A DNA stretch of 18,265 nt from a virus (taxonomy: Duplodnaviria > Heunggongvirae > Uroviricota > Caudoviricetes), in the IMG/VR virus record IMGVR_UViG_2541047922_000008. One strand, written 5' to 3'. The position numbers and the translations under genes were made by a program. Under the pieces are notes generated by a model. It did not search any database and was not told where the DNA came from. It worked only from the letters and a program-made list of their open reading frames with translations. Shown in pieces: positions 700 to 17,050 of the stretch (positions are counted from its first letter, which is position 1; each line of letters starts with the position of its first letter).

Positions 700-1014
700 T
701 CACGATAGTTCCGTTTTGTTGAATTCAATTATATCAAGGTCAGAACTTTCGTAATCCTTACCGAATAAAGCAAAACATATCGCGTCAAGTTCTCTCTTAT
801 GTTTGGACGCCCGATCATAATTACCACCCCAACAGCAAATGAATCCACCAAGTACTGCTGATTCAAAAAGTAATGATGCTGCATCAATATGTCTGAACCA
901 GGAGTCTATAAGTAAAGCAGAGAGTGATATTAATGTTCCCCACCCGCCAATCCTTCTCCATTTCTCAGCTTCATATTTAAGAGAAGCAATATATTCAATT
1001 TTATCTCTCGTCAT
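700..1014 (-). CDS. small membrane protein (104 aa, two predicted hydrophobic helices), last gene of the cargo operon
   Basis: ORF with ATG overlapping the upstream stop (TGATG at 1012-1016). Hydrophobic stretches WGTLISLSALLIDSWF and ASLLFESAVLGGFICCWGG. About 35% GC, versus about 50% for the neighbouring genes. Confidence 0.6.
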   Translation of the reverse strand: MTRDKIEYIASLKYEAEKWRRIGGWGTLISLSALLIDSWFRHIDAASLLFESAVLGGFICCWGGNYDRASKHKRELDAICFALFGKDYESSDLDIIEFNKTELS

Positions 1015-3770
1015 CAGTTCCCCACCGCCTTTCCAAAATCCGGTGCTCTACGTGGCGCAATAGCACCCGGTTCCCACCAACTCGTTATGTCGAACTCCCG
1101 TTGCGAGCGGTCCCTTACTCGATCATTGTAACCAGGGTTTGCCATCTCCTGAAGTTGTTGCAATATCAGGTGATTGGTTATCGCTTTCGCATACCACAGG
1201 TTTGCGAATGGGGTGATCATGCGGGCTGTTTTCAGTGCATCGGCACCGAATGATGTTTCTTCACCCTGTAGAGCCTTCTGTGGGTTAGTAATCAGTAATT
1301 TTGTTAACTGCTCTGCAAAGCTCAACACAGGGCCCCCCATAGTGGCACCGATGCTGGAGCCATATTGCGTATGGTCCTGGAAAATAAAATCACCGTAGAT
1401 ACCGAACGAACCACCTTTCAGTAAAGCCTGAACCCATGTGGTTGGTTTTGTCATATCCAGCGGATCATTACCATTTAACAAACTGTTCATCTGGATCGCA
1501 AACATACCAGCAAGAGTTGTTCCCCCGATATATGAGGCCAGAAATTTAATGGCCGGAACGGTGTCCAAATCCCGTGTTCTGTTAACAAGTTGCCGAAATC
1601 CAGCAAATGGGGTTGTTTTGAAGAGCATGAAGCTCTTCATTAACTCGCCAGCATCATCACGGGCATATGTATCAATACCCGTAGCGGTGGTCACAGCATT
1701 GGTCATCTCACCGTGCGTAATTCCCAGCAATTTCTGGGCTGCTTCAGCGCGTGCATTACGAATCATGCGCGTGATGGTCTGCTCAGCCTCAGCGTCGAAT
1801 GCTTCTTTCATCCGTTTCAGGCGTTCTGGAGGGAGATCTCCAAGGGCTGCCAGTGCCTTTTCACTCCCGGCACGAATCCGGGTAATACGGTCTGCCATAA
1901 TGTCGGCTATTACGTTATCGGGCACAGCGTAAATCGCGTCTGGCGTCATCCCCATATGCCCGGCAGTAGTCATCGGCCTGAGTTCTGCCGCTGCCATGAT
2001 GGCCCAGTCCTCATTGCTCCATCCCTTGTTAGCCAGAATGGTTTTATCGGTTCCTTTCATATCGTCCAGCGTCTTAAATTTTCTGGTCAGCTCGCCAATG
2101 TTTTTGTACATCAGGAGACCAAACGACGCTTTGTTTGCGCGGTCCATAGCGATCAGCCCGGACCACTTCAGTGTCTTCTCTGCGAACCAGCCAGTTATGC
2201 CGCGAGACAAGTCAAACCCGCCCATTTTCGAAACCACAGCAGCATGTGAATCCACCAGCAGACCGAGTTCAGCATTCGCCTTTTTGGCATCTCCACTAAA
2301 CAGGTTTTTGATAGTGTTAACGGAAAGCCGCATTCCACCACGGGTAAAGCCCAGCGCCTGCGCATTTGCCCGCATAATTGCCTGGTCGCTGGTTGCTGTC
2401 AGTACGCTGGTGCCAAGCATGGCGCTGGTCATCAGGTTACGCAGACCACCAACTGCTGAAGAGAACACACTCGATGAAGCGACACCATTTAGGCCAGCCA
2501 TTGAGTTGAACATACGGGCAACTAATTTGGCCTCATCCTCCATTTCTTTTTTGCGTTTCCCGCCTGTTACTGCGCGCTTATAGATGCGATCCAGTACCAG
2601 GGAAAAGTTTCTTTCGGCGTCCGGACCAAAGGCTTTAACGACGCCCAAATCCCTGGATGATGATTGCAGGTGCGACATCATCACCCCCACCAGCGGCTGC
2701 TGAGTGTATCGCTCCATATAGGCGAAGTGTGACTGCGCATCCTTGAACGCCATCACCCTGTGCTGAGAACCACGGCTCTTTATTCCTCCGGCTCCCATAA
2801 ATGTACCAGGCTCAATTTTGTTTGCCCCATCAGTGGCCTTCGTTTCAAAGATCGCTTCCAGTGCCTGACGGTACTCGACGTCATTCATAATGCTGCCGTC
2901 AGGATTAACGTAATTGCTGCGATCCTGCGTGTTGTAAGCGTCATCAACCCATTTCTGGCGGGCAAACTCAATCGGTGGCTGGCGACCTGAAAGACGTGCT
3001 GTAGCTTGCTCTGCCACTGGTAACGATGCCAGCCATTCTTCGCGCCCGGCATTGCGAATAAGGTCAGCATCATCCACATATGGCGTATGCCAGTCTTCTC
3101 GCAGGCCTATGTCAAAGCCATTGTCGTTCATCTCATGACGAACACGGCCTGTTACATCCTTCCAAATCTGTGCAATTTTCTTCGCCAGGGGATTCCCGGT
3201 ATCTTCGCCATATATTTCTTTCAGGATCTGGAGTTGTGCAGACTTTGCCGCCTGCCTGTCGAATACACTCCGAAACCGCTGCTCTCCAAGCGCCCTGCTC
3301 TGCTCGAAGAATTTGCGGACGTCATCACCTGCTTTTAGAAGTTCAGCACTGAGCTGACGGGACCAGTCCTGATATGCCCCAATTGCAAGCTCTTCAGCAG
3401 AAGTAACGGAGATATCAGCTTTGTCTCTCGATCGTCGGCCAGCAAAAATAAACTGCTGCAAATTAACAGGTGTCTGCTGATCAGGCGGGATGTTAGCATC
3501 GAGAGTGTCAGTAATTTTACTGATGGCGATCGCATTCTGGGCAACACGCTGTCTTTTCTTGTACACATCATGAACCACACGCTGGCGAACCAGTTCTGCA
3601 GCATCCATGTATGTTTGAGCATCAGGAATACCACTTTTGCCTTCCATTGCATTCTTTCTGTGCACTTGCCGCACAGCTTCTTTGATACGATCTTCGATAT
3701 TTTTCAGCTCATCAGCCTTTGGCTGGCGACCAAGTGTCTGCGCAATAGCTTCAACACATGCCTGTTTCAT
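1014..3770 (-). CDS. giant protein C (about 918 aa), unknown function, Gly/Ser/Ala-rich hydrophobic central region, no P-loop
   Basis: Long ORF. The ORF track starts at a GTG at 3791; I prefer the ATG at 3770, which overlaps the stop of protein B as TAATG (3768-3772), the same junction as between A and B. No Walker A motif seen. Confidence 0.85.
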   Translation of the reverse strand: MKQACVEAIAQTLGRQPKADELKNIEDRIKEAVRQVHRKNAMEGKSGIPDAQTYMDAAELVRQRVVHDVYKKRQRVAQNAIAISKITDTLDANIPPDQQTPVNLQQFIFAGRRSRDKADISVTSAEELAIGAYQDWSRQLSAELLKAGDDVRKFFEQSRALGEQRFRSVFDRQAAKSAQLQILKEIYGEDTGNPLAKKIAQIWKDVTGRVRHEMNDNGFDIGLREDWHTPYVDDADLIRNAGREEWLASLPVAEQATARLSGRQPPIEFARQKWVDDAYNTQDRSNYVNPDGSIMNDVEYRQALEAIFETKATDGANKIEPGTFMGAGGIKSRGSQHRVMAFKDAQSHFAYMERYTQQPLVGVMMSHLQSSSRDLGVVKAFGPDAERNFSLVLDRIYKRAVTGGKRKKEMEDEAKLVARMFNSMAGLNGVASSSVFSSAVGGLRNLMTSAMLGTSVLTATSDQAIMRANAQALGFTRGGMRLSVNTIKNLFSGDAKKANAELGLLVDSHAAVVSKMGGFDLSRGITGWFAEKTLKWSGLIAMDRANKASFGLLMYKNIGELTRKFKTLDDMKGTDKTILANKGWSNEDWAIMAAAELRPMTTAGHMGMTPDAIYAVPDNVIADIMADRITRIRAGSEKALAALGDLPPERLKRMKEAFDAEAEQTITRMIRNARAEAAQKLLGITHGEMTNAVTTATGIDTYARDDAGELMKSFMLFKTTPFAGFRQLVNRTRDLDTVPAIKFLASYIGGTTLAGMFAIQMNSLLNGNDPLDMTKPTTWVQALLKGGSFGIYGDFIFQDHTQYGSSIGATMGGPVLSFAEQLTKLLITNPQKALQGEETSFGADALKTARMITPFANLWYAKAITNHLILQQLQEMANPGYNDRVRDRSQREFDITSWWEPGAIAPRRAPDFGKAVGN

Positions 3771-5830
3771 TATGGGTTCCTCAAGAAGCACGCTGCCGCT
3801 ACAGAATAAACCTTCGATTCGTTCTGGACTGTCTTAATCTGTTCATCCAACTCAGCCAGGAGATCAGAAAGTTTTGTCGGGTTTCCGGTTTCCGGGTGAG
3901 CTATAGTCAGCTCAGGATTGGCAACAGCCATGTCCCTAGCAGCCATAAGGTCATAGCTGTTGGATGAGAGAACCTGCCCTGTATCTGGATCAACGCTGAC
4001 GTCCCCTCTGTGTTCACCAGCCGATGAGAAAGCACTTTCAGCACGAGGGACAGGCGATTCACTAATTGGCTCTGATGATGTTTCATATCTGACACCATTT
4101 TCTTCAAAAACCTTTTGTATTTCATGGTATTGCTCTTGGTAAGTATCAGATATATCTGATCGCAATGGACCATCAAGCCCTCGCGCCATCCCCCCAACAT
4201 TTACAGGCTGACCATCATTAAGTTGCCTGTATGCTTCATCCATGGCGTCAACATGGCTGTTGATGCTCTCATTGCTGGTGTGAAGCACTGGTGACGATTC
4301 AATATCGTAATGAAGCCCCTCATTCAAAATGTGGGCTGCATCAATATCGCTTGGTTTTATTCTTTCCCTCGCCCGGATACCAAAAACTTTTTCTACTGCG
4401 GCTTCCAGTTTCATATTGCGAAGACGCATACTTACGAGTAACCGTAACTGCTCAGGTGTAACGGTTCCAACCTGAATACCACTGTATCTGAATATATAGG
4501 CTTTAAAACCTGAAATAATTTTTTCCCATGATGAAACGCTTGTCTTTAGAGATGGATTTACTGCATGTGCGGCAACTTCTTCAGCGTACAACCACTCAGG
4601 ATATGTTTCAGGGTACTCACCCCTTTTCTTATATTCATAATATTGTGACATCCCATATGCAAATTCAGGATAGTCAGAATGCTTGTTTGCAGATTTAAGT
4701 ACAGCATTAGCTAGCTTTCTGGCCTTCCAGTCAGGGTAATGGCGCTGCTCAAGATGAAGCGCCTCGTGATGAAGGGTTTCTAACAGTTCTTCATGGTCTT
4801 TTAATCCATTAATATTTATTCTTATTATTGGTTCTTTTCCAGAAGCTACTGTCACATGACCTTTATTCAGAAGTATTTCTCCATCACTATTTTTTATTGC
4901 TGGTTCATTAATAAGTTCTATTACTCCTGAATCAGATAAATCACGAACCATTGACTCAATGTTACCATCAGGAGATTGCTGATAATGTTCACCAAAAGTT
5001 GATTTTATTTCTTCTGCAGAAATGTTCGACTCTGTACCATCATGGTTATTATGGGTAGTCAGGTGATGAACGCCACCAAAGACCCCGCCTAAAACGGCAT
5101 CGACTAACATCGCCTGACCGTCAAATACCCGGTACTGTTTTGCCATCTCCGTGTAGCCTTTTTCCTCCAGTGTTGCGCCGACAGAGTAACGGTTCAGTCC
5201 ACCGAATCCGGTGTTGATTGCCACACCTGAGGCAATGCGCGTTGCCAGTGTGGTGCCGACGGCAGCGGGTAAGGCCATACCCACAGCATTGAAAAGGCTT
5301 TGCTGCGTTGCCAGGTTACGCGCCGTAGCCTCGTCTACTCCCTTCCCTTTAAAATCCTGATAGGACTGCTCATACGTAGAACTGAAAGCTGTAGCAGCGC
5401 CGATGAGGGGACCGCCAAACATAGTTGTTCCGATTGCAGGAACAAATTTACCAAGCTCATTTAATACCTCAGCCGCCATTCCCTGACTGCCTGCATCAGG
5501 CTTCACATAGCTGCGGGCATCCTGTAACTGTTTTCCGATCGTGTCGTATGTATCATTCAGTGTTTTGTCAGCATCAGGGAACATCTCCCGAAAAATATTA
5601 ACAGTCGGTGCCACGTCTGCGGTAAATGCCGGATCGCTAATCAGGCGCTTGCTGAATCCGACGGCAGACTGCGCGAGACCGAGAGTCCCCTCCGCCACGC
5701 CGCTCAAAAGTGCAGTACCTGAACCCTGGAAGGGAGTCGGATCGTAGTCTTCTGGCCTTGCTGGGTTGGCAACTGTTTTGTCGTCAATCCATGCCTGACC
5801 TTCTGGAGCCAAAGAAAAAACATCAGACAT
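3770..5830 (-). CDS. giant protein B (686 aa), N-terminal glycine-rich hydrophobic segments plus a single HExxH zincin-type motif
   Basis: Long ORF whose ATG overlaps the stop of protein A (TAATG at 5828-5832). HHEALHLEQ at residues 354-362 (nt 4745-4771). GxxxG-rich hydrophobic stretches across residues about 120-260. No P-loop. Confidence 0.85.
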   Translation of the reverse strand: MSDVFSLAPEGQAWIDDKTVANPARPEDYDPTPFQGSGTALLSGVAEGTLGLAQSAVGFSKRLISDPAFTADVAPTVNIFREMFPDADKTLNDTYDTIGKQLQDARSYVKPDAGSQGMAAEVLNELGKFVPAIGTTMFGGPLIGAATAFSSTYEQSYQDFKGKGVDEATARNLATQQSLFNAVGMALPAAVGTTLATRIASGVAINTGFGGLNRYSVGATLEEKGYTEMAKQYRVFDGQAMLVDAVLGGVFGGVHHLTTHNNHDGTESNISAEEIKSTFGEHYQQSPDGNIESMVRDLSDSGVIELINEPAIKNSDGEILLNKGHVTVASGKEPIIRININGLKDHEELLETLHHEALHLEQRHYPDWKARKLANAVLKSANKHSDYPEFAYGMSQYYEYKKRGEYPETYPEWLYAEEVAAHAVNPSLKTSVSSWEKIISGFKAYIFRYSGIQVGTVTPEQLRLLVSMRLRNMKLEAAVEKVFGIRARERIKPSDIDAAHILNEGLHYDIESSPVLHTSNESINSHVDAMDEAYRQLNDGQPVNVGGMARGLDGPLRSDISDTYQEQYHEIQKVFEENGVRYETSSEPISESPVPRAESAFSSAGEHRGDVSVDPDTGQVLSSNSYDLMAARDMAVANPELTIAHPETGNPTKLSDLLAELDEQIKTVQNESKVYSVAAACFLRNP

Positions 5831-8361
5831 TATTCAACCCTCACGACAATAGCTTCATTGGTTCTGGGATCTGTTGCCCAGCGTCCGCTACCATTTACCA
5901 GCCGATACCGGTTATTGCCGATATTAACTGGTGTGAAGTTTGACACTGCATTTACGTTAAGTCCGGCTTCTTTCAGTGCTTGTTTCGCAGATGTGGTATA
6001 GCGATCTTTGAAAGTAGATTTATCCATGCCGAAAGGCATTACAACGTCGCCGCCATTAAAATCCTTGTATATACCGCCAGTAGCATACTTCACGGCATCA
6101 GCAACAGTGTCTGTATCAGGCATACTGGTTCTTACCGTAGATGCATCACCTGATTGATAAGCTATTCCTGCGTAAGCGGCTTTGAAAAGGCTATAACTGA
6201 TCTGACGTAACTGCGGGTTACGGGCAAATGCGTTACCTACCTGTTTGTCGAAAGCGTCTTTCATCTTATCTTCGCTCGGCAACTGTACCGGAGTTATGCC
6301 CGCATTCTTCATGGCCTTCGTCGGATTCAGTAGTTGGTCACCGGAAAGAATAACCTTTGCAACGTCGTACTTGTTCATCGTCGGCTTATACCCGATGAAC
6401 TGACTATATGGGATCGACGGTCTGGTGTTATCGTACTGATTATCCGGCGTGCCCAGCAGCAGCGCAGAATAGGCTGTTGCCGCACTGTTCGGAGCAATTA
6501 CAGATGCCACCTGCCGTATTGCTGGCGCAGGCAGCTTCTCCCCCATGCTCTGCAACAGTTTAATTGTCTGGTCAACGTTCTGAGTGCCGCGCACCTGCTG
6601 TGCCAGCGCAGCCGCCTCTTCACTGTTGAGGATTGGGGCATTAATTCCCAACGCGCGTAAGCTTTCCTGCGACGAGAAACGGTTAGCCACCTCGGCAGTG
6701 ATGTCGTCAGGGTTGTTGCTGGTGATCGGCTTATAGGCTCCGATTTCCACCGCTGCACTAAACGGATTATTCTGCCTCTGGGTTATTACCTTCGTGGCTG
6801 CCGCCGATACCCGGTCGAATAACTCCGCACGAGACGCATACCCCTCCCCTGTCTCACCAGTATCCGGGCGTAATTGCTCAACATATGCGGTAATGCTGCT
6901 TGTCGGCATGTTGCGGAAAGAGCCTATATACTGTCCGGCGATCTGCAAATTTCTGAACTCGGTATATCGCAGGTTTCCTTCTCTGACACCATAAGCAGCA
7001 ATGAACTCACCCTCACCAGGCGGGTTAGGAAATTCAACGCCACGCATATACGCAGCCGTTGCATCGCGAACCCGGCTTTCGAGCATCGTTCTATATTCAG
7101 CCTGCTGCTGTCTGGCTAATGCATCCGTCTGTCGCAACACGCTGGCCTGATCTGATTCACTTAAAGCATCGAACCAAGCTACACCGGTATAACGTTTATT
7201 TTTTGTCGGTAGCTGAGAAAGCCCCAGTGCGGCACTAACGCCAGCGGCCAATTGCTGATCACTGTACGGCTGACTGCCTTGCTCATGATGAATAATTGCT
7301 TTGCACAGAGATTTCAGTGTGTCAGGATTTGATGCGTCAAGCGGCTGGTCAGGAGTTACACCGAGCTGAGCACATACTGCCCGTATATAAGCATCAGTTT
7401 TATTATCATCACTGGCCGGTGCCCAGCGATTAATTATTTCGCTGATGGTGTCATAACCCTGACGCTGATACGACAGCAAATTGCGACCAAGCGCGCGAAT
7501 ACCGTGTTCAGGGGTTTCGAATTTGGCAAAGCGACCATCATCACCAGTCTGCCCAACCCACGGATTAGTTTTGCTGTATTCAAGATTGCCGGGGTTATTG
7601 TTGCGTATACCGCGGGTACGATCGGAAGAGCCACTATCTGCTACAGCACGGCGAGATCCAGCAGCAGTATCGCTTAACTCGCCGTTTTGCTGTCTTACCT
7701 GAAGATAGTTTGCTCCAATAGCATTTTGAGCAGTTGCTTTTGCTGTTGCTTCTTTAAACTCGATTTTCTTGGCCTGGATTTGCTCGTCGCTCCAGCCATG
7801 CGCAATACCGTAATCCTCAATTTGCTGGAAAGTTTGCGTATTAGCCAATATGTATGCTGCGTTGTCGCCATATAATGCTGAGGCATTTTTACCATTATTC
7901 AGCAGTGTCGCCTGAAACTGGCCTTCTTCGTAGGCATTTATTTGCCCTATCTCGTACCTCCCGGCCTGCGTAGCGAACTGAATACGCTGCTGCTGCGCCT
8001 GCTGCATGAAAGCATTACGAGCCTGTTCATCCGGCAGCGACATAGCCAGTTGTTCGATCTGAGCATCAAACTGCTGTGTATACTCATGGCCTTTTCCAAT
8101 AGCATTTTTCCCTTTCAGGTTAAGCAATCCTGTTTCAGGATTATTCAGCAGATCACTGCCTGTCTGACTGAGTTTAAGGGATGCCTCCTGAACCAAGGCA
8201 ATATTGGCGCGCTGTTTTGCCTGACCAAGAACATCAATTGCCTCTGTCCCTGCCCGAACAAAAGCATCACCAATACCTGGCTGAGAAAACGTCTGCAAGC
8301 CTGCTGACTGAACTCCACGGCTCTCAACCTGGCGTCCGGATACTGTTGGTACGACTGGCAT
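5830..8361 (-). CDS. giant protein A (843 aa), Q/A/N-rich, unknown function
   Basis: Long ORF with ATG at 8361 preceded by an AGGGGG Shine-Dalgarno. Sharply defined block TRGIRNNNPGNLEYSKTNPWVGQTGDDGRFAKFETPEHGIRALGRNLLSYQ at residues 248-299. No P-loop. Confidence 0.85.
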   Translation of the reverse strand: MPVVPTVSGRQVESRGVQSAGLQTFSQPGIGDAFVRAGTEAIDVLGQAKQRANIALVQEASLKLSQTGSDLLNNPETGLLNLKGKNAIGKGHEYTQQFDAQIEQLAMSLPDEQARNAFMQQAQQQRIQFATQAGRYEIGQINAYEEGQFQATLLNNGKNASALYGDNAAYILANTQTFQQIEDYGIAHGWSDEQIQAKKIEFKEATAKATAQNAIGANYLQVRQQNGELSDTAAGSRRAVADSGSSDRTRGIRNNNPGNLEYSKTNPWVGQTGDDGRFAKFETPEHGIRALGRNLLSYQRQGYDTISEIINRWAPASDDNKTDAYIRAVCAQLGVTPDQPLDASNPDTLKSLCKAIIHHEQGSQPYSDQQLAAGVSAALGLSQLPTKNKRYTGVAWFDALSESDQASVLRQTDALARQQQAEYRTMLESRVRDATAAYMRGVEFPNPPGEGEFIAAYGVREGNLRYTEFRNLQIAGQYIGSFRNMPTSSITAYVEQLRPDTGETGEGYASRAELFDRVSAAATKVITQRQNNPFSAAVEIGAYKPITSNNPDDITAEVANRFSSQESLRALGINAPILNSEEAAALAQQVRGTQNVDQTIKLLQSMGEKLPAPAIRQVASVIAPNSAATAYSALLLGTPDNQYDNTRPSIPYSQFIGYKPTMNKYDVAKVILSGDQLLNPTKAMKNAGITPVQLPSEDKMKDAFDKQVGNAFARNPQLRQISYSLFKAAYAGIAYQSGDASTVRTSMPDTDTVADAVKYATGGIYKDFNGGDVVMPFGMDKSTFKDRYTTSAKQALKEAGLNVNAVSNFTPVNIGNNRYRLVNGSGRWATDPRTNEAIVVRVE

Positions 8362-8457: not shown

Positions 8458-8664
8458 TTACTCACCCCCCGATGCAAAACCATTCTGATTAAGCCAGGCG
8501 TTTACGGCATGTCTGACAATCTGCGCCACGCCTGGTAATGGCTGATCAGGGTGATTGTTCACATGGTCGATTCTGTACTGCTTAAGGCGCATCACGGTCT
8601 GTGCATCCAGATGAACGGAACCACCTCTGACATCGCCTGTGTTCAGGTCGTTAATACAATTCAC
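8458..8664 (-). CDS. small protein (68 aa), likely first gene of the giant-protein operon
   Basis: GTG start at 8664 directly after an in-frame TAA, preceded by AAGAGGAA. Lies downstream of an AT-rich putative promoter region (8665-8763) and 96 nt upstream of protein A. Confidence 0.45.
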   Translation of the reverse strand: MNCINDLNTGDVRGGSVHLDAQTVMRLKQYRIDHVNNHPDQPLPGVAQIVRHAVNAWLNQNGFASGGE

Positions 8665-8766: not shown

Positions 8767-8789
8767 AAAAAAAGCCGGATTGCTCCGGC
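8767..8789 (-). terminator. intrinsic terminator separating the replication module from the cargo operon
   Basis: GCCGGA-GCAA-TCCGGC hairpin (8774-8789) followed on the minus strand by seven T (8767-8773). Not followed by a T-run on the plus strand. Confidence 0.6.
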
Positions 8790-9030
8790 TCTGTGCTTAC
8801 TTCTGGTAGTTACGCCATACTGATTTCCCGATCCCATCTATCCCCATTTCTTTTTCAGTGCGTTTAAGCGACCGTTTCAGGTCTTCTAAATTATCCGGTT
8901 GCTTTGGTGGCCTCTGTGCCTTGCTGGAACATTCCAGTCGTCGCATTGATATGCAATACCGTTCCTTGTCAGTACCCCAACTGCATTACTTCACCCCATC
9001 GCGCCGCCGCTCTTCGGTACAGGGTTTTAG

Positions 9031-9447
9031 TTAGCCTCCGACTCTTCCGTAGTGCTGTTCTGGTGGATTCACATAGCCCCTTTCTTGCAGGTATTCGCGA
9101 ATATCAGACATCAGGAGACGGTTAACCGTGCTCTTGTCTTTTCTCCGGTAAAGGCGTCTGGTGATCATGAAGTAGTTAGCAATGATCTCCGGTATATCCC
9201 TGACGCTGATACATGCTGTATGCTGGTCAATAGCTTCAATCATCTCTTCACGAGTTACAAAAGTCTGGCGTAAACGAGTGATCACACCATGTACATCTGA
9301 ATGATCATTTATACGCTTATTTTGGCGCTTCGCGCTCTCGACTGTGACACTGACAACAATGTCAACTCTTTGTTTTTCCGCAATTTCATCCACAATGTGA
9401 TCACCTGCACGGCGACCATGTGCGTGATCATTTCTTACTATTTCCAT
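9031..9447 (-). CDS. hypothetical protein (138 aa)
   Basis: ORF overlapping the ProQ/FinO gene stop by 20 nt, consistent with co-transcription. No motif recognised. Confidence 0.5.
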
Positions 9448-9925
9448 TCATCTCCTCCAGTAGTTTTCCTGCGTGCGTCTGTTGTAGTGGTGTTACCTCG
9501 CCGCACGGCTGGCCTTTCAGGTCGTAACGCGCGCCACCAGCTACCAGGGCGCGGTAATAGCGCGGAGTCTGCACATAACGCGCCAGCGTTGCGCGTAGTG
9601 TTCCCTGTCCGAGTGAAATACCTCTCGCGGCAATATCCTGTATCAGGTCGTCAAATATCCCCACCTTAAGCGGCTTAGGTGATTCCGGGCTGAATAATTC
9701 AGGCCATAGCTCAATAAGACGGTTAACGCGTCTGCGGTTTTTACGCTGCTGTTTGGTCATACGCCGCCGCGGTGTTGCTCCTGTGAGCTTCTGCTGTGTG
9801 TTCTGGTTATCTGGCATCACTTTATGCGCCGATGTGGTTTTATTCTGCTGCTGCGCCGCCTGTGCTGTTTTCTGCGGCGTGCCGTAAATGCCCTTCGGTT
9901 TTCTGTTTATGGTCAGCTTTGTCAT
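9428..9925 (-). CDS. ProQ/FinO-domain RNA-binding protein
   Basis: [18 protein letters not shown] ... [49 protein letters not shown] tracks the ProQ N-terminal domain (PLKIGIFQDL ... LRSALRLYTSSWRYLYG ... RVDLDGNPCGEL ... ARKQLEE). Confidence 0.85.
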
Positions 9926-9961
9926 GCCTTCCCCTGTAATTACTCTGTTCGCTGTTGTGAA

Positions 9962-10387
9962 TTAAAACGGTATCCCGTCCCCGTACGGATCATCGTGCTG
10001 GCCTGTCTGTTGCTTTGCCCTGTTCAGTGCATCAGTAGCCTGCCCCTGCTGGCCTTTTTTGCCGCCCGGTCGCGCCGTTCGCGCACTGATTACGCTGTCT
10101 GCGATAACCTGCCATCCCTGCCTCGTTTCGCCGTTCTGGCCCGTCCACCGGCTCACCTGCATGTTACCGGCCACGCTTACCAGTTCGCCTTTGTGGTGTT
10201 TTGCCAGTGCGTCAGCCTGTCTGCCAAACGCCAGGACGGATAACCACATCGTCGCCGTTCCGTCATCTGCCTGATTGCATGGAAGGGGGACCGCCATACT
10301 CGCCATCGCCATTTGTGTGCCCTTGCTGGTGGTCTTTAACTGCGGGTCAGCCACCAGCCGCCCGTAAGCTGATATTTGCGCCGTCAT
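9962..10387 (-). CDS. ssb: single-stranded DNA-binding protein (SSB-like OB fold with acidic C-terminal tip)
   Basis: Residue pattern (GRLVADPQL ... TMWLSVLAFGRQADALA ... GELVSVAGNMQVSRWTGQNG) parallels E. coli SSB. C-terminal DDPYGDGIPF resembles the SSB DDDIPF tail. GGAGAA Shine-Dalgarno upstream. Confidence 0.8.
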   Translation of the reverse strand: MTAQISAYGRLVADPQLKTTSKGTQMAMASMAVPLPCNQADDGTATMWLSVLAFGRQADALAKHHKGELVSVAGNMQVSRWTGQNGETRQGWQVIADSVISARTARPGGKKGQQGQATDALNRAKQQTGQHDDPYGDGIPF

Positions 10388-10446: not shown

Positions 10447-10574
10447 TTTTGCGGGTTACAATCGCACATTTGCGGGTTATAACTGCCGTTTTGCGGGTTA
10501 CGTGCGGGTTATTGATTTCCTTTTTAATCATGCAGTTAATTAACTTATACACAGGATAACCCGCATAACCCGCA
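10447..10574. repeat. iteron cluster, putative origin of replication
   Basis: Four direct copies of TTTGCGGGTTA at 10447, 10468, 10488 and 10502 (spacing about 21, 21, 11 bp). Two inverted copies TAACCCGCA at 10557-10565 and 10566-10574. An AT-rich spacer lies between them. Located between the primase stop and the ssb start. Confidence 0.6.
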
Positions 10575-10597
10575 ACTTTTTACCTCACACAGGGAAG

Positions 10598-12724
10598 TTA
10601 ATCTTCTGCTTCAGGCTGGAACATCAGCACGTAAAAAATATGCTGCTTCCCGCCAATCCTGCCGAGCGCCTTTTTCTTGTAACGGCGGTCGCCTCCCGCT
10701 TCCAGCATTCCGGCAGCACTCAACGCGCGGGCAAAGTGAGACGGATTAAATCCCTGTGCTATCTCACCCTCAAACACATGCGGGAACGTGTAAAAACGGA
10801 ACTCGTCATCTTCGTTTCTGATACTCCCCTTTCTGTATCCGGCAAGGTCTTTAATCGGTAAATCACGCTCGTCGCTGTTTGGATAGGGAAGGTATCGACT
10901 GAACCCGAACGACGACAAAAACGCCTCAGCCTGTTCAACCATCTGTTTAAATTCCCTGTTGCCCGTGCCGAATTCCTTCACCCAGGCATTAAAGTTATGC
11001 TGAACTGCATCACGGCACGCCTGAACATCCCAGCCTGTAACATGACCGGAAAGCACAAGCGCGGCCTCCAGTACGGCGAATCTTTCCCCCACACGGTGAA
11101 CCTGCTCGCCGTAGCTCTCCGGTATCAGGTTGCGCCACCGCTCGCGACATGCCCTTACCGCGTCCTTTGCCTCCTGCTGGTGGCCTGCCAGCCATTTAAC
11201 CCACTCACGACCTGCCGCCCCGTGATTTTCTGTCCAGGCATCTTTTAACGCGTCTGCGTGCGCCTTTCCGGTGCTGTATTCGTGAAACTGCGAGGCCTTT
11301 TCCATCGGTACGTTAAGCAGACGGACAAGCTGCCCCGCTTTAATTTTTATCCCTTCCGTTTTGAGGAATGTTTCAACGTCCATTTCTCCGGTGCTGATTG
11401 CCACCGTGCGCCAGTGTTTTATCTCCCTGTTGCCGCCGTCCTTCGCCCCCTGTAATTTCCCGGAACCGTTAAACAGCGTATAGGCTGACGTGGACACCTC
11501 CCGTGCGTTTCCGGCCTGGCCTATTTCATCCAGGGGTAACAGCCCGTCATTATGTGCTTCGGCCTCGTTGGCGATACCTAACGCCGTTCCGTACCAGGTC
11601 AGCCGTTGCGCGTCCGGCTCTCCCCATAAACTTGATGCAATGTTCTGTGTGGTGGTTTTACCTGCTGATGATTGCTCAAAAAGATGAACCCCGAAGCCGT
11701 CAGCACCCACCAGCCCGATTAATGGTGCAGATAGCGATACCGCCACACCCAGCATCATGGACGGATTACCACCAGCCAGCCGTGCCACGGTATCGCGCCA
11801 GCCCTCCGCTGTTCCCGCCACGGAATAGCCATTAACAGCGGCAGTTTTTCCGGTAAACAGGATGGGTTTCTCTGATTCACCAATGACCGAACCGTCCGGC
11901 ATGATGTACGCACCAAAATGCCACCCCGTTGTTGTGCTTAACTGCCATTCCTCATGGTTTCCGCTTAACTGCATCCAGTCAGCCAGGATAGCCCTGTATT
12001 TGCCGTTGGTCGTCACGTTAAGGCCGTGGTCTTTCAGCAACCGCCAGCCGTCACGGTCACCAATGCCTCCGCACGGGACCGCCATTGTAATGACCTCATG
12101 GTTTGCTGGTTTTTTCCAGCGCATTACGCGGTAATGCTCTTTTCCGATTGTTCCTGTTCCCAGTAGTTCAAGCGGAGAACATAACCACGTCTCAGGCCGG
12201 ATAATTTCGCCTGACTGCTTGTCCACTTTGGGCGTTACCCAGAAAACACCATCGACGCGACTTTCAACACGAGGCTTTAATTCGTCATCATAATTTCCGG
12301 TGAAATTTGTCTTCGCCGGAAGGTTGATCACCAGACTGTTACCGTGTTCCGCATCATCCTTCAGTCCAGCCATGCGCGGTGTCCAGTCCTCCGGCTGCTG
12401 ATCAACAAAGCTGCGGTAGCAACGCGCCTCCTTCACACCCGCCACTGCAAGCAGTGTCGCTATCTGTGTAAGGTGCTGCTCTGATATTTCACCAGCACGA
12501 TAAACGCGCACGTAATAGCGCCCTTTGTCGATGATTTGCGTGTCTGCCAGACTCGCCAGTTGTTCCGGTCCAAGAATAACTGGATGTGTATCATCTGCCG
12601 CAATATGCTTTCCGGCCCATTCGCTCCACTCTTTCGCATGTGCCCAGGCATCACTACCCGCAAAGATAATCACCTCCGTCATTTTGTCTTTCGGCTGGTG
12701 CTTTAAATTCGGTGCGCGTTTCAT
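10598..12724 (-). CDS. replication primase/helicase-type protein (P4 alpha-like or DUF927-like P-loop NTPase)
   Basis: 708-aa ORF. Walker A-like FEQSSAGKTTTQ and Walker B-like LLPLDEIG. Position immediately upstream of the iteron cluster. ATGA overlap with the upstream 100-aa gene. Confidence 0.8.
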   Translation of the reverse strand: MKRAPNLKHQPKDKMTEVIIFAGSDAWAHAKEWSEWAGKHIAADDTHPVILGPEQLASLADTQIIDKGRYYVRVYRAGEISEQHLTQIATLLAVAGVKEARCYRSFVDQQPEDWTPRMAGLKDDAEHGNSLVINLPAKTNFTGNYDDELKPRVESRVDGVFWVTPKVDKQSGEIIRPETWLCSPLELLGTGTIGKEHYRVMRWKKPANHEVITMAVPCGGIGDRDGWRLLKDHGLNVTTNGKYRAILADWMQLSGNHEEWQLSTTTGWHFGAYIMPDGSVIGESEKPILFTGKTAAVNGYSVAGTAEGWRDTVARLAGGNPSMMLGVAVSLSAPLIGLVGADGFGVHLFEQSSAGKTTTQNIASSLWGEPDAQRLTWYGTALGIANEAEAHNDGLLPLDEIGQAGNAREVSTSAYTLFNGSGKLQGAKDGGNREIKHWRTVAISTGEMDVETFLKTEGIKIKAGQLVRLLNVPMEKASQFHEYSTGKAHADALKDAWTENHGAAGREWVKWLAGHQQEAKDAVRACRERWRNLIPESYGEQVHRVGERFAVLEAALVLSGHVTGWDVQACRDAVQHNFNAWVKEFGTGNREFKQMVEQAEAFLSSFGFSRYLPYPNSDERDLPIKDLAGYRKGSIRNEDDEFRFYTFPHVFEGEIAQGFNPSHFARALSAAGMLEAGGDRRYKKKALGRIGGKQHIFYVLMFQPEAED

Positions 12725-13025: not shown

Positions 13026-13283
13026 TTATTTCCCGGTATGGGGTTCTTCTTTATATTTATGGGCTAACAAATCTGGTAATTGCCTGTATTTATCCTCGGC
13101 AATATATTCAGAATAATCGACAGCACTGTTCAGTATATCTAACGCCGTTTCATGCTCCAGATTCGAAACTATAAGGAACGTTGCTACTTTTAGCATATTC
13201 GCGATATGCAAAAGAGCATCAATTTCATTTTTTGGCGCTTCACTGAATTTTTGCTCCAGAAGAATAAATCGTTCATCACGCAT
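13026..13283 (-). CDS. hypothetical protein (85 aa), AT-rich
   Basis: ORF 2 nt upstream of the 100-aa gene. Markedly AT-rich relative to neighbours. Confidence 0.5.
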   Translation of the reverse strand: MRDERFILLEQKFSEAPKNEIDALLHIANMLKVATFLIVSNLEHETALDILNSAVDYSEYIAEDKYRQLPDLLAHKYKEEPHTGK

Positions 13284-13479
13284 AGTATTCCCCCTGACGG
13301 ATGCGGGCAGTAAATACCATCACGCAGCCAGTCGGGGATTGCTGACGGGCTTCCTGTTCGCTGGCGGCCTCGATGTGTATTACGCGTGGTTGTGCGGTGC
13401 TCAGGGCGATAAAACGCCAGATGTATTTATTCAGGTTGTGCGAGTCCCGCCCTTGCGGGTGTGTGGTATGATTTAACAT
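13276..13479 (-). CDS. hypothetical small protein (67 aa), first gene of the leftward replication operon
   Basis: ATG at 13479 preceded by GAGGTAG. It is the 3' part of the 396-aa track ORF, whose upstream part runs through the operator palindromes and antisense to two better-supported plus-strand genes. Confidence 0.35.
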   Translation of the reverse strand: MLNHTTHPQGRDSHNLNKYIWRFIALSTAQPRVIHIEAASEQEARQQSPTGCVMVFTARIRQGEYYA

Positions 13480-13576
13480 AGCTACCTCGATACGCTTTCT
13501 ATCGTTGGTGGTTAGACGCCCTGCATGTGTTGCGAGCACTGCGGGGCGTTGCTTAATTTGAGCAATGCAACCCAAA

Positions 13577-13616
13577 CTGTGCGCACAGATTAAAATCATG
13601 TGTGCGCACATGTCAA
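13577..13616 (-). promoter_or_regulatory. leftward promoter with palindromic operators
   Basis: Perfect -35 TTGACA on the minus strand (13611-13616). It overlaps the perfect 16-bp palindrome CATGTGTGCGCACATG (13597-13612). A perfect 12-bp palindrome CTGTGCGCACAG (13577-13588) lies at the expected transcription start. A half-site TTGTGTGCGCC sits near 13645-13657. The -10 hexamer is weak (TTAATC). Confidence 0.5.
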
Positions 13617-13684
13617 TACTTAACTTCTCACTTTTTTTGCTGTATTGTGTGCGCCCATCAAATCCATTTAAGTGAGGTGTACCA

Positions 13685-13882
13685 ATGTCTAGCGGAAACA
13701 CAAACAACAAATCAGCAAAGAAAAATATTCGATTCCCGCACGAGCTTATAGATGGGATTGATGCCAGTGTTGAACAAGAAAAATTAACTAATCCTAGTGC
13801 TAATTTTTCCGCATGGGTCTTAGATGCCTGTGGACGCAAATTAAAATATGAACAGCGCCGGAAGGCCAAAGAGCAGGAGTAA
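13685..13882 (+). CDS. small ribbon-helix-helix-like DNA-binding protein (65 aa), candidate repressor
   Basis: GAGGTG Shine-Dalgarno 6 nt upstream. NIRFPHELIDGIDASVEQE fits the Arc/MetJ beta-strand plus helix pattern (R-F-P-x-E-L). Transcribed divergently from the operator-bearing promoter. Confidence 0.55.
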   Translation: MSSGNTNNKSAKKNIRFPHELIDGIDASVEQEKLTNPSANFSAWVLDACGRKLKYEQRRKAKEQE

Positions 13883-13939
13883 CCATCACCAGCGCCGTGG
13901 TGCGGTGAACTGTGGCGCACAGGGTTACAGGTATCTACG

Positions 13940-14137
13940 ATGACTGACAAATCATTAAAGAAATTATCCTCATCCAGGAAAAAACAACGCAAAAATGCGG
14001 TAAGCGAACAAGAACAGGAAAGATTTGCGCCATGTGCGTTTGTCCTTGAGAAGTTCTTAAAAGAGTACAGGCGCACAAAAATGGAATCGCATACCTGGAA
14101 AACATCGCAGTATGGCGATGCTAAAGAGCAGGAATAG
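13940..14137 (+). CDS. small basic protein (65 aa), hypothetical
   Basis: ORF with a weak Shine-Dalgarno. Its last codons and the about 15 nt after the stop repeat the 3' end of the upstream small gene. Confidence 0.4.
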   Translation: MTDKSLKKLSSSRKKQRKNAVSEQEQERFAPCAFVLEKFLKEYRRTKMESHTWKTSQYGDAKEQE

Positions 14138-14227
14138 CCCACCAGCAAGCCAGCACACTGATCACATTGCCCACCAGCCGCAAATCTGGCATTGTTGGCG
14201 ATGCGTTTGATTTCCTTTGTTCCCACT

Positions 14228-14255
14228 GGCGACCTATCCCGGTCGCCTTTGTTTT
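14228..14255 (+). terminator. intrinsic terminator for the plus-strand small-gene transcript
   Basis: GGCGACC-TATCCC-GGTCGCC hairpin (14228-14247) followed by TTTGTTTT. No T-run on the minus strand. Confidence 0.5.
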
Positions 14256-14305
14256 GCCTGTTATCCAGCAACGGGGCGCTTTTTCTTTCTGTAACGTTCG
14301 GATCG

Positions 14306-14863
14306 TTACACATTGCTTTCACCCTCCAGAAAATCAGGCTGATATTTACGCCATAGCGCCCGCTCTTCTCGTTCCAGTGCATCTTTTGCCTCTTTGCATT
14401 GCTGTAACCTGTAACCGCGTTTGCTGGCTTCCTGTTGATATGCAGCCTGACGTTTACTGAAATCATTCAGCATGGCAAACGGAACACCATAACCCCCCGT
14501 TTTGCGGATTGAAGGAATCACCTCGCGGAATACCCAGTTACTGAAACGGTGCGCAAATGTGCCTGGTGTGGAAGCTTTACGGCTGCGGGCGATCAGTTTG
14601 TAGAAACCTGATTCAGAGACAACATTCCAGCTTCTGGCACCACCACGCTTACCGGAATGACCCTCGGTTAAAGCTAGGGTCATTACCTCATCGTTATCCA
14701 GAACTGAAACGGCATCAGTAACATTGCTGATTTCCAGCGCGGCACACACATCAGCGCCAACAAACCACGGCTCGCCGTTGATACTCACTATGCGCACCTG
14801 AATGTCATCGAATTTAATGACAGAGATTTCAGTGCGACCAGCATAAAAGACAGGTTTACGCAT
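14306..14863 (-). CDS. Bro-N domain protein (phage antirepressor family)
   Basis: VIKFDDIQVRIVSINGEPWFVGADVCAALEI matches the Bro-N signature. 8-nt overlap with the upstream gene. Confidence 0.8.
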   Translation of the reverse strand: MRKPVFYAGRTEISVIKFDDIQVRIVSINGEPWFVGADVCAALEISNVTDAVSVLDNDEVMTLALTEGHSGKRGGARSWNVVSESGFYKLIARSRKASTPGTFAHRFSNWVFREVIPSIRKTGGYGVPFAMLNDFSKRQAAYQQEASKRGYRLQQCKEAKDALEREERALWRKYQPDFLEGESNV

Positions 14864-15731: not shown

Positions 15732-15929
15732 TCAGGCAGCCGTTCCGCGTGATTCGGCAATACGCTGATTGATCCATTCGTCAATTTCACTTTCAACGAA
15801 AGCAATCGCTCGCGAGCCAATTTTAACTGATGCAGGAAATTTACCTTGCCCCATAAGGCGATAAATCCATGCCTTGCTATATCCAGTTCTACGCTGAACT
15901 TCTGTTAAACGAATAAGCGTATTTGACAT
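15732..15929 (-). CDS. alpA: AlpA/Vis-family HTH regulator (excisionase-like)
   Basis: LIRLTEVQRRTGYSKAWIYRLMGQGKFPASVKIGSRAIAFVESEIDEWI is the classic AlpA (Phage_AlpA) pattern. GAGGT Shine-Dalgarno. Confidence 0.85.
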   Translation of the reverse strand: MSNTLIRLTEVQRRTGYSKAWIYRLMGQGKFPASVKIGSRAIAFVESEIDEWINQRIAESRGTAA

Positions 15930-16124: not shown

Positions 16125-16928
16125 TTAATCCGGCTTTGCGTTCTTTTGGCTGTTGTCTCGGTTAATAGGGCAGGCAGTCCTCTCTATGAGCGTTGCAAGA
16201 GCATTACTTGCCCCCCACTGCTTAAGCTCCCTGGTTATCGCTTCTTGATTTCCCCTGGTGGCAAAATCATTTTCTGGATCGTAATTGGCCCACTCTCTGT
16301 TTCTAATCTCAATAGCCTTAGCTAATGGGTCTTTATCCCAGTATTTATATAAGTGTATCGGGCGCTCTTGCTCTAACTGCTCTATCCTTGCCCTTAACTC
16401 TGCGTTTTCTCTTTCCAGCATTGCGATTTGGGATAATAAATCATCCTCTGTACGCAACTCTTTCTTTTCAATATCGCGTCCTTGTGCCTCGTCATTTTCA
16501 GAAGAGTTAGCGCCTTCCAGCTTCGTTAACGCGTCAAGGACATCGGGAAAAATTGCGAAAATTTCACCCCTTATAAATCCAATGTTCTCAAATTCGGGAT
16601 CTTCCCAATAACCGGACACCAGAAAACCATTTTCATCCCTCTCACCAGGTAAACAACCATGTTTCCGAACCGCATCCAGATTTCTATAAAGAACATCATA
16701 ATCAAATTCATCCCGATACGGGTTACAAAAAGATTCCAACAGCTTAAATTCATTTACTGTGTACAGGCGGATATGTTCTCCGCTTATTCTCCTGAGTATC
16801 CAAGTTATGAGATCTGAAACATCATAATCATCACCAGCGACCTTAAGCACGACCTCAAGAAATTCACGTAAAGAAATAAAATCTTTTTTGTATTCGTTTA
16901 ATTCGGCATGAATATCAATCATACGCAC
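16125..16928 (-). CDS. acidic protein (267 aa) with central coiled coil, unknown function
   Basis: ORF with GAGGTG Shine-Dalgarno. About 56 Asp+Glu versus about 36 Lys+Arg. Heptad-like segment LLSQIAMLERENAELRARIEQLEQER. Sits between int and alpA. Confidence 0.6.
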   Translation of the reverse strand: MRMIDIHAELNEYKKDFISLREFLEVVLKVAGDDYDVSDLITWILRRISGEHIRLYTVNEFKLLESFCNPYRDEFDYDVLYRNLDAVRKHGCLPGERDENGFLVSGYWEDPEFENIGFIRGEIFAIFPDVLDALTKLEGANSSENDEAQGRDIEKKELRTEDDLLSQIAMLERENAELRARIEQLEQERPIHLYKYWDKDPLAKAIEIRNREWANYDPENDFATRGNQEAITRELKQWGASNALATLIERTACPINRDNSQKNAKPD

Positions 16929-17050
16929 ACCTCAGCGTCCTCTACTGTAGTGGCTGTGCCAGCCCGTCGAGGTATACGGTTTTTCGGGAGCGACCCTAGA
17001 CACAGCCTTTTCTTTCGTCGCTCAAAGTCTACTACTGTATACTCAACCAG

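Follow-up and report, generated by a model that had tools for sequence, protein, structure and literature searches.

A FinO-domain gene, a fragment of P1-like phage DNA and a decayed perC gene at the end of the replication operon of an Escherichia coli phage satellite

Introduction

FinO-domain proteins have been well studied on plasmids and on bacterial chromosomes, and the ligands of this family are mostly intrinsic-terminator structures (PMC9977716). What might such a protein do on a phage satellite, and what are the sequences that accompany its gene there? Genes of the ProQ/FinO type have been noted by annotation on the PICIs of Enterobacter cloacae (PMC13612085) and on satellite-plasmids of Vibrio (PMC13230959), and in the literature we found no functional study of a FinO-domain protein on a phage satellite.

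The question is raised by a stretch of 18,265 nucleotides, the whole of which is here called the window, that is 100% identical to Escherichia coli strain FDAARGOS_1298 (NZ_CP070115). An initial annotation had described within it an operon in which ssb, a ProQ/FinO-domain gene and the gene of a 138-aa unknown protein were followed by an unusually long, untranslated and structured tail containing a palindrome and ending at an intrinsic terminator; it was suggested that the island might in this way encode RNA-level control of itself or of a helper phage. Here, we examine the composition of this locus and that of its relatives, and suggest that much of its apparent regulatory apparatus could be the consequence of past recombination with a P1-like phage.

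Results

The island and its replication operon

Its gene content identifies the window as a PICI-type phage satellite of E. coli, located at tRNA-Gly. It has int, an alpA regulator, a primase with an adjacent origin and the tRNA-Gly integration site, and a full set of phage morphogenesis and lysis genes is absent from it; the presence of int, alpA, the DUF927 primase and an iteron origin bears out the earlier view of the locus as a phage-satellite-type island. Between the DUF927 primase (10598-12724, a profile match) and ssb, directly upstream of the latter, lies a putative satellite replication origin (10448-10575) with four direct TGCGGGTTA iterons at 21-bp phasing and two inverted copies flanking an AT-rich stretch. 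The ssb gene (9962-10387, minus strand; WP_000126713.1), correctly recognized from the outset, encodes a 141-aa single-stranded DNA-binding protein in which an OB-fold domain (PF00436, E=2.4e-16 and 60.1 bits in the Pfam profile search; TIGR00621, 61 bits for a cutoff of 53.95; phrog_44) is joined to an acidic tail, ...DDPYGDGIPF, whose last residues form the C-terminal tip ...DGIPF. This SSB would support replication of the satellite from the adjacent putative origin.

The late module downstream encodes three internal virion proteins that resemble epsilon15 gp15-gp17 (PHROGs and tblastn); Pfam, NCBIfam and PADLOC gave no match to these three large proteins. Such cargo sequences point to an epsilon15-like podovirus, not to P1. 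The satellite's replication/early operon has its distal end in the region 8771-10387, where one gap of 36 nt, one overlap of 20 nt and the lack of a strong terminator between the genes are consistent with a single operon. The intrinsic terminator that closes this primase-ssb-proQ operon was rightly identified in the initial annotation; it lies at 8771-8792 (minus strand), consists of GCCGGA-GCAA-TCCGGC followed by U7, and is among the three strongest terminator-like sites of the window. In a promoter scan, neither the operon nor an antisense RNA could be assigned a convincing promoter, and the hits were fewer than in shuffled sequence.

A FinO-domain protein

The gene at 9428-9925 (minus strand) encodes a protein of 165 aa whose assignment to the ProQ/FinO family is confirmed by several lines of evidence. 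It matches PF04352 (E=6.8e-24, 84.4 bits for a cutoff of 27, profile positions 5-102 of 109), and among PDB sequences it matches the ProQ NTD (5nb9, 2e-14) and FinO (1dvo, 4e-11) as well as NMB1681 and RocC. An AF2 model has a pLDDT of ~62-89 across residues 58-164, and the top 27 PDB hits found with it by Foldseek are all FinO, RocC, NMB1681, Lpp1663 or ProQ (probability 0.89-1.00), at modest TM-scores of 0.44-0.64. The FinO domain occupies residues 58-164; it is preceded by a disordered, basic/Gln-rich region (residues 1-52) that opens with a conserved LTINRKP motif, and the protein stops at residue 165, immediately after the domain, without the C-terminal domain of ProQ. It does not behave as an orthologue of the chromosomal ProQ: the Pfam and NCBIfam matches are confined to the FinO domain, and NF003434 gives 57.5 bits, below the cutoff of 127, and is covered at positions 9-107 of 205 only.

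In the alignment of homologues K87, R111, R122, Y123, R133 and D135 are conserved, and K87, Y123 and R133 are invariant in 26 homologues. The residues K87, R111, Y123 and R133 are the equivalents of K35, R58, Y70 and R80 of E. coli ProQ, which are needed for RNA binding (PMC7192607). At the position of ProQ K54, which is not conserved, the satellite protein has a Gln. Taken together, the profile and PDB matches, the predicted fold, the conserved residues and a dN/dS of 0.15-0.35 give this FinO domain a functional-looking character. The basic C-terminal tail of the protein is absent in the present lineage.

The 138-aa reading frame

The 138-aa ORF (9031-9447, minus strand), which overlaps the proQ stop by 20 nt, had been taken for an unknown protein. 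It proves to be a chimera of pacA and ant fragments (pacA' and ant'). In tblastn its residues 7-68 align with residues 67-129 of PacA from P1, P7 and SJ46 (63-68%) and its residues 59-127 with the N-terminus of Ant from RCS47/JL22-type P1-like phages (71-72%); PHROGs returns phrog_63 (Ant, 2e-26) and phrog_1711 (terminase, 2e-10). The ant' segment (9067-9261, minus strand) is homologous to the beginning (~69 codons) of ant, the gene of a KilAC antirepressor in P1-like phage-plasmids, and is matched at 77-83% nucleotide identity by the P1-like plasmids/phages RCS47, vB_EcoM-673R5 and JL22. The short 3' stretch that is left (9031-9066) is unmatched and may include an out-of-frame remnant of the 5' end of perC. 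The P1 homology begins at the TGA stop of proQ, itself part of a P1 TGATCA hexamer, and the rest of the island outside this block has no other P1 similarity.

Inside pacA' there is a segment (9275-9430, minus strand) with 83-85% nucleotide identity to positions 90729-90884 of P1 (NC_005856), which bear the annotated pac cleavage sites and IHF site. The P1 pac site is defined by seven TGATCA/G hexamers (4+3) that flank the IHF site and the cleavage core (PMC10028697). The island's segment retains the cleavage core (9346-9355) at 9 of 10 positions and the IHF site (9363-9375) at 12 of 13, and with only four of the seven hexamers kept (2/4 and 2/3) it is, by sequence, no longer a P1 pac site. Its IHF site still fits the IHF consensus, WATCAANNNNTTR. 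The hexamer columns are not better conserved than the rest of the segment in the island (86.5% vs. 82%); the corresponding values among true P1-like phages are 100% and 92.6%.

Could this ORF represent a genuine protein family? We rejected this idea: full-length relatives are confined to E. coli and E. albertii, and they are nothing but near-identical copies, of which several have a broken frame. The unit of ProQ and the 138-aa ORF is lineage-specific and was detected in 45 of the 5426 E. coli genomes. When one query covered both proQ and the 138-aa ORF, ~1,500 of the 5,426 complete E. coli genomes gave a match, a count that includes hits of P1-like plasmids to the 138-aa part.

The tail is a perC pseudogene

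Some 238 nt separate the stop codon of the 138-aa ORF from the terminator, and the length of ~240 nt initially given for the tail was thus accurate; its description as a plain untranslated region of unusual structure was not. The tail contains a perC pseudogene (8797-9028, minus strand), recognized by DNA alignment, tblastn, Pfam and RefSeq, the last of which labels 8797-9022 as a pseudogene, "PerC family transcriptional regulator, frameshifted". A 49-aa ORF (8797-8946) matches the Pfam PerC profile (E=1.3e-13, positions 41-88 of 90), and tblastn places intact PerC proteins on the tail in two frames (9028-8978 and 8973-8803). A true member of the family (PF06069) has an intact ORF of ~90 aa that covers the whole profile, including the N-terminal YRRAAxRW segment. 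Here, the start codon and the first ~12 codons are missing, the frame has been shifted at least once with respect to intact copies by a 2-nt deletion near 8975, and the YRRAAARW segment lies in a different frame from the 49-aa ORF. The perC copy of GPEC1366 has one more 2-nt deletion. We also considered the 49-aa ORF as a functional mini-protein made of the C-terminal part of PerC; this is unlikely because it holds only half of the domain and no Shine-Dalgarno sequence was found upstream of its ATG at 8946. With perC dead, the operon mRNA would end in this stretch, which probably escapes translation.

Of a regulatory 3' UTR or sRNA with real structure one would expect a folding energy beyond that of its composition, conserved structural elements or a match to a known RNA family. 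The minimum free energy of the tail is -67.8 kcal/mol vs. -66.4 +/- 4.5 for shuffled sequences (z = -0.32), and an Rfam search of it yielded no family at E<=1. The palindrome CTGGAACATTCCAG is located at 8924-8937 as reported. Palindromes of this type (6-bp arms, 2-nt spacer) number seven in the window vs. 4.5 expected, which is chance level, and this one spells the codons Leu-Glu-Cys-Ser of the PerC frame. It is broken in the O157 perC copy (CTGGAATGTTGCAG), and the Salmonella and AH01 copies do not have it. The palindrome is thus no more than a by-product of coding sequence.

The module in other islands

Relatives of the locus were gathered by a protein homologue search, followed by retrieval of the contigs encoding those homologues; a related-locus search of genome contigs with the ProQ protein alone had 190 pattern matches and no confirmed relative. 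The order SSB-ProQ-PerC is found in E. coli (L012-L014), Citrobacter (L016) and Salmonella (L021/L022), with an overlap of 4 or 11 nt between perC and the stop of proQ, and the perC genes of the relatives are intact (90-95 aa). The AH01 island (L010) has ProQ-PerC without SSB; two cf-PICI-type islands (L004, L006) have SSB-PerC without ProQ directly upstream of their capsid genes; and in another cf-PICI (L018) ProQ is followed by an 82-aa non-PerC gene. ProQ-like genes also stand alone in unrelated island contexts (L011, L015, L019, L020, L023), so that the link with SSB and PerC is frequent, not obligatory.

The search for an RNA partner

No Rfam hit lies in or near the ssb-proQ module, and no antisense RNA, Rfam family or conserved non-coding element could be connected with the FinO-domain protein. 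For the whole window at E<=1, the sole Rfam hit is the int-alpA RNA, which is far from the module and is present both in the window and in the AH01 island, the two being ProQ-bearing. As a possible ligand of the FinO domain it was set aside: a U-run closes the consensus of this RNA family, but the copy in the window has no U-tail, and no link to ProQ was found. The C4 and isrK RNAs occur only in one E. coli relative (L012) and are absent from the window; hence they cannot be the partners of the present FinO-domain protein.

Discussion

The explanation that we favour, and hold to be reasonably probable, is that this locus is the end of a satellite ssb-proQ-perC operon in which a P1 fragment was inserted and perC decayed, and which encodes a FinO-domain RNA chaperone. 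The ancestral order would have been primase, iteron origin, ssb, a proQ/finO-like gene, perC and terminator, with perC overlapping the proQ stop. A piece of ~360 bp from a P1-like phage, made up of a pacA fragment with most of the pac site fused to the first ~69 codons of ant, would then have landed between proQ and perC. This insertion would have deprived the FinO-domain protein of its basic C-terminal tail and perC of its start, and made a fortuitous 138-aa ORF; the subsequent decay of perC would have left the pseudogene that was mistaken for a long 3' UTR.

By analogy with its family, the FinO-domain protein probably serves the satellite as an RNA chaperone that binds terminator hairpins. 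It would most likely bind the 3'-terminal hairpin and U-tail of one or a few transcripts of the satellite or of the helper phage, and either shield these from decay or favour their pairing with antisense RNA, in the manner of FinO with FinP and FopA with Inc. What is known of the family makes such RNA-level control plausible, and the fixed place of the gene between origin and late module suggests that replication, or the early-to-late transition, could be its target. With its basic tail missing and its partner perC dead, the protein could be functionally impaired here. A more ambitious proposal, which we put forward tentatively and regard as possible though doubtful, is that SSB, the FinO-domain protein and PerC constitute a conserved cassette, in which a satellite-specific RNA chaperone, its translation coupled to that of PerC, would set the timing of replication or of late-operon expression by way of satellite or helper RNA. 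In the PICI and cf-PICI satellites of enterobacteria, such a cassette would stand where the origin gives way to the late operon, the one for capsid or virion proteins.

Other readings of the locus must be weighed against these. The initial annotation saw in the ~240-nt tail a 3' UTR with structure and a regulatory function, or a region giving rise to a 3'-derived sRNA, whose palindrome and terminator would be bound by the FinO-domain protein in order to control island or helper. It is true that 3' UTRs are frequent binding targets of ProQ-type proteins, that the tail probably ends the operon mRNA, and that a terminator hairpin with U7 is the generic type of element bound by FinO domains (PMC9977716). 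Yet the tail is a decaying gene without excess folding energy or an Rfam match, its palindrome is a chance-level, coding-derived and unconserved sequence, and the relatives that have the ancestral module possess no such tail, their perC being intact and translated; we consider this model highly improbable. Rather unlikely, too, in our estimation, is a role of the FinO-domain protein mainly on host or helper RNAs, in which it would rival or mimic the chromosomal ProQ, or sequester helper transcripts, as a means of interference or takeover. In its favour, members of the FinO family are able to take on foreign RNAs, and RNAs of plasmids can make use of chromosomal members (PMC9977716), Rfam detects no cis partner RNA, and the solitary same-clade ProQ-like genes in islands without SSB and PerC argue for a context-independent, trans-acting role; the recurrence of translationally coupled ProQ-PerC beside the origin suggests, on the contrary, a role in the satellite's own programme.

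The P1-derived block might itself be functional, either because its pac-like segment (9275-9430) allows the pacase of a P1-like phage or phage-plasmid to cleave and package the island, which would then be a satellite of the P1 family, or because a PacA'-Ant' protein interferes with P1 packaging or immunity. Satellites are known to bear the cos or pac signals of their helpers; the cleavage core, the IHF site and four hexamers are present; and the ORF is in frame through both fragments, has a dN/dS of 0.26-0.43 vs. the phage genes, and is intact in its commonest variant (a cluster of 112 members). We nevertheless find this improbable. Three of the seven hexamers have been lost and those columns are not selectively conserved; Sternberg and Coulby, in 1987, are said to have found that losing a single hexamer cuts cleavage ~10-fold. 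Moreover, relatives bear frameshifts and deletions within the block, only the 45 genomes mentioned above have it, no further P1 similarity exists elsewhere in the island, and the cargo suggests an epsilon15-like podovirus.

In practical terms, the apparent regulatory 3' UTR is corrected to a dead gene and the "unknown protein" to debris of P1 recombination, and the FinO-domain gene becomes part of a module common to E. coli, Salmonella and Citrobacter islands. The locus also illustrates how satellites acquire and erode fragments of helper phages, such as the P1 pac site and the epsilon15-type ejection proteins of the cargo. If a dedicated RNA partner exists, RNA-level control would be added to the conflict between satellite and helper; and if the conserved-cassette proposal is true, phage satellites would for the first time be shown to have a control layer based on an RNA chaperone.

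Comparison with known systems

The likeness to the P1 pac site, of 83-85% identity, takes in the cleavage core and the IHF site together with a portion of each hexamer cluster; the island differs in its 4/7 hexamers and in having no pacA or pacB genes. The tail is homologous to the PerC/Pch regulators of EPEC/EHEC and of the PICIs EcCIEDL933, EcCICFT073 and EcCIMP1_025, and PerC genes are reported to be common PICI accessory genes (PMC11773190). The PerC of an O157 island has ~67% amino acid identity to the tail over residues 32-88 and 82% over residues 13-29, and perC lies, as in the PICI relatives, downstream of ssb and upstream of the late module; the relatives' genes are intact, whereas the present copy is a frameshifted pseudogene without a start codon. 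The two cf-PICI-type islands with SSB-PerC have the same order of int, alpA, icd-like gene, DUF4222, primase, origin, ssb and perC, but in the present island the place of their capsid/terminase set is taken by the epsilon15 gp15-gp17-like proteins.

The chromosomal ProQ of E. coli and Salmonella provides, with its NTD, the best sequence match (5nb9), and the four equivalents of its RNA-binding residues are kept; however, it has a linker and a C-terminal Tudor-like domain, in place of which the satellite protein has its N-terminal extension. In this respect the closer parallel is with FinO of the F-like plasmids and FopA of the IncI plasmid pCol1B9, which are likewise small FinO-domain proteins of mobile elements with a basic, flexible N-terminal extension. 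FinO is the best structural match (1dvo), but the identity is only ~30%. Those proteins belong to conjugative plasmids and the present one to an integrated phage satellite, in which tra genes are absent and counterparts of FinP/traJ or Inc/repZ were not found. FopA controls replication by means of the antisense RNA Inc (PMC9977716), and the FinO-domain gene of the satellite also sits in a replication module.

Gene Layout of the Island

An island in the chromosome of Escherichia coli FDAARGOS_1298, adjoining tRNA-Gly, matches the window at 100% identity. All of the genes relevant to the SSB–ProQ region lie on the minus strand. Read along that strand, the tyrosine integrase (17051-18265) and the AlpA regulator (15732-15929) come first, then antirepressor-like genes of the AntA and Bro-N types, followed by genes for an Icd-like and a DUF4222 protein and for a DUF927 primase (10598-12724). 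After the iteron-type origin (10448-10575) come ssb, the proQ/finO-like gene, the 138-aa ORF and the terminator. The origin-like array, directly upstream of ssb, comprises TGCGGGTTA as four direct repeats, phased at 21 bp, and two inverted copies that flank an AT-rich core. Judged from its sequence, this is the layout of the enterobacterial phage-inducible chromosomal islands (PICIs); the related capsid-forming islands (cf-PICIs) L004 and L006 have the same gene order, followed by a capsid/portal/terminase set.

An int-alpA RNA motif (RF02996; 46.9 bits vs. a gathering score of 35.8) occurs on the minus strand at 16939-17006, between int and a 267-aa ORF; the U-rich tail seen in the consensus is missing from this copy. 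The island of E. coli AH01 also has this motif (16639-16706). Farther along lies a 396-aa minus-strand frame (13276-14466), of which RefSeq calls just the final 67 codons, as Icd-like. Two annotated genes on the plus strand overlap it, one YlcI/YnfO-like (DUF3950; 13685-13882) and the other a 65-aa ORF (13940-14137), and a strong plus-strand terminator is found at 14228-14247. This convergent arrangement is a probable lysogeny/induction switch. A related ProQ-bearing island, L012, carries on its plus strand, upstream of the replication genes, isrK (1139-1216; 62.9 bits) and C4 antisense RNA (1279-1366; 79.9 bits), a P1/P4-type RNA immunity element; neither RNA is detectable in the window.

A FinO-Domain Protein Encoded Next to ssb

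The gene identities and satellite context proposed in the initial annotation stand; its structured 3′ untranslated region and special palindrome do not. The SSB gene (9962-10387; PF00436, E=2.4e-16; TIGR00621 above cutoff) encodes the usual ...DGIPF C-terminal tip, and the intrinsic terminator is present at 8771-8792. Because the ssb/proQ region has a 36-nt gap, a 20-nt overlap and no strong internal terminator, its sequence is consistent with the co-transcription of ssb, the proQ-like gene and the 138-aa ORF.

The proQ-like gene (9428-9925, minus strand) encodes a 165-aa FinO-domain protein (PF04352, E=6.8e-24) that matches the solved FinO-domain proteins ProQ-NTD, FinO, Lpp1663, NMB1681 and RocC. 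Its AF2 model has a disordered N-terminus (residues 1-52) and a FinO domain (58-164), and the best 27 PDB fold matches are all FinO-family structures, with FinO itself first. Like FinO and unlike ProQ, it is extended at the N-terminus by a basic stretch and has no Tudor-like domain at the C-terminus, and it falls short of the ProQ equivalog cutoff. Equivalents of E. coli ProQ K35, R58, R69, Y70, R80 and D82 are all present; substitutions at K35, R58, Y70 and R80 of ProQ weaken or abolish RNA binding (PMC7192607). Within the family, K87, Y123 and R133 are invariant in 26 homologues, and the dN/dS of the FinO domain against six relatives is 0.15-0.35. A near-invariant motif, M-x-x-L-T-I-N-R-K-P, occupies the region of residues 1-12, with I6 and R8 invariant in 26 sequences. 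The window allele lacks the basic C-terminal tail (KRKRQRKAAKE-like) seen in most relatives in the homologue alignment.

FinO-family ligands are mostly intrinsic-terminator hairpins, and members from mobile elements serve one or a few RNAs, such as FinP and Inc (PMC9977716). By analogy, therefore, the protein would most likely serve as an RNA chaperone dedicated to transcripts of the satellite or its helper. We found no partner RNA for it; the position of its gene suggests that it is connected with replication or with switching on late expression. ProQ/FinO-like genes on PICIs are in print as annotations only (PMC13612085, PMC13230959).

A perC Pseudogene and a P1-Derived Chimera

The tail that had been taken for an untranslated, structured region contains a PerC-family pseudogene. 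A 49-aa ORF (8797-8946) matches Pfam PerC (E=1.3e-13; profile positions 41-88 of 90), and, in every close relative examined, RefSeq lists 8797-9022 as a PerC-family pseudogene with a frameshift. Alignment to intact 90-aa PerC copies reveals that the start and the first ~12 codons are gone and that a 2-nt deletion moves the frame; in tblastn, PerC residues 13-29 (9028-8978) and 32-88 (8973-8803) fall in different frames. An additional 2-nt deletion in strain GPEC1366 indicates that the sequence is still decaying. For the 266-nt RNA, folding is no more stable than that of shuffled sequence (z = -0.32), and no Rfam family matches it. The palindrome is indeed located at 8924-8937, but it corresponds to the PerC codons L-E-C-S, palindromes of this design are at chance level in the window (seven observed vs. 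4.5 expected), and it is disrupted in the O157 copy and missing from those of Salmonella and AH01.

Nor is the 138-aa product an unknown protein: it joins PacA(67-129), in frame, to Ant(1-69). Window 9275-9430 has 83-85% identity to the part of P1 pacA that holds the pac site, the matched segment in NC_005856 overlapping the annotated pac cleavage positions and IHF site, and 9067-9261 has 77-83% identity to the first ~69 codons of ant, a KilAC antirepressor gene, in P1-like phage-plasmids (e.g., RCS47, JL22). Since RCS47/pB1W1-type P1 relatives have pacA, pacB, ash', icd and ant in collinear order on a single strand, the pacA'-ant' fusion could be explained by the capture of a single segment and a subsequent internal deletion. 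The TGA stop of the proQ-like gene, itself part of a P1 TGATCA hexamer, is the exact point where the P1 homology starts; at the other end, the homology gives out just short of what is left of perC. The chimera has full-length relatives only in E. coli and E. albertii, all near-identical copies, and several carry frameshifts or deletions; among 5,426 complete E. coli genomes, 45 have the ProQ+138-aa unit.

A satellite with a P1 packaging signal would be unusual. Residual function of the P1-derived block, whose pac-like sequence keeps 12 of 13 positions of the IHF site and nine of 10 of the cleavage core, seems to us quite unlikely: P1 pac is defined by seven TGATCA/G hexamers (PMC10028697), of which only four are kept, and the hexamer columns are conserved no better than the remainder of the segment, whereas in true P1-like phages they are perfectly conserved. 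These differences argue that the block is probably a relic.

The Ancestral Cassette and Its Phage-Derived Neighbors

A search for homologues of the FinO-domain protein gave 267 hits, most from Escherichia and others from Shigella, Salmonella and Citrobacter; these were sampled together with their contigs. The order primase, origin, SSB, ProQ, PerC recurs in E. coli (L012-14), Citrobacter (L016) and Salmonella (L021/22), and there perC overlaps the stop codon of proQ by 4 or 11 nt. The AH01 island has ProQ-PerC without SSB; cf-PICI L018 has SSB, ProQ and an 82-aa non-PerC gene with capsid genes directly after; and solitary members of the same clade occur in other island types. By these arrangements, SSB-ProQ-PerC is a recurrent cassette that the window carries in disrupted form, and the finding is that of a mobile-element FinO-domain protein within it. 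The conserved cassette and the phage-derived fragments are worth noting, if not surprising to specialists.

Just past the terminator, a 68-aa minus-strand ORF (8458-8664; phrog_4934, E=2e-31; WP_000995640.1), present in all close relatives, is the first of an operon with three large minus-strand ORFs (5830-8361, 3770-5830 and 1014-3791). The products of the latter carry the annotation hypothetical and are homologous to internal virion/ejection proteins of podoviruses, with PHROG matches among them to phrog_992 (1e-289) and phrog_684 (2e-295); the 925-aa protein shares 89% identity with gp17 of Salmonella phage epsilon15, and a lytic transglycosylase domain is present in the 843-aa protein, as in epsilon15 gp15. 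A brief literature search found no published description of epsilon15-like virion proteins in a PICI slot. These ejection proteins fill the slot that holds the capsid genes in cf-PICIs, which suggests that the island has an epsilon15/phiV10-like helper phage.
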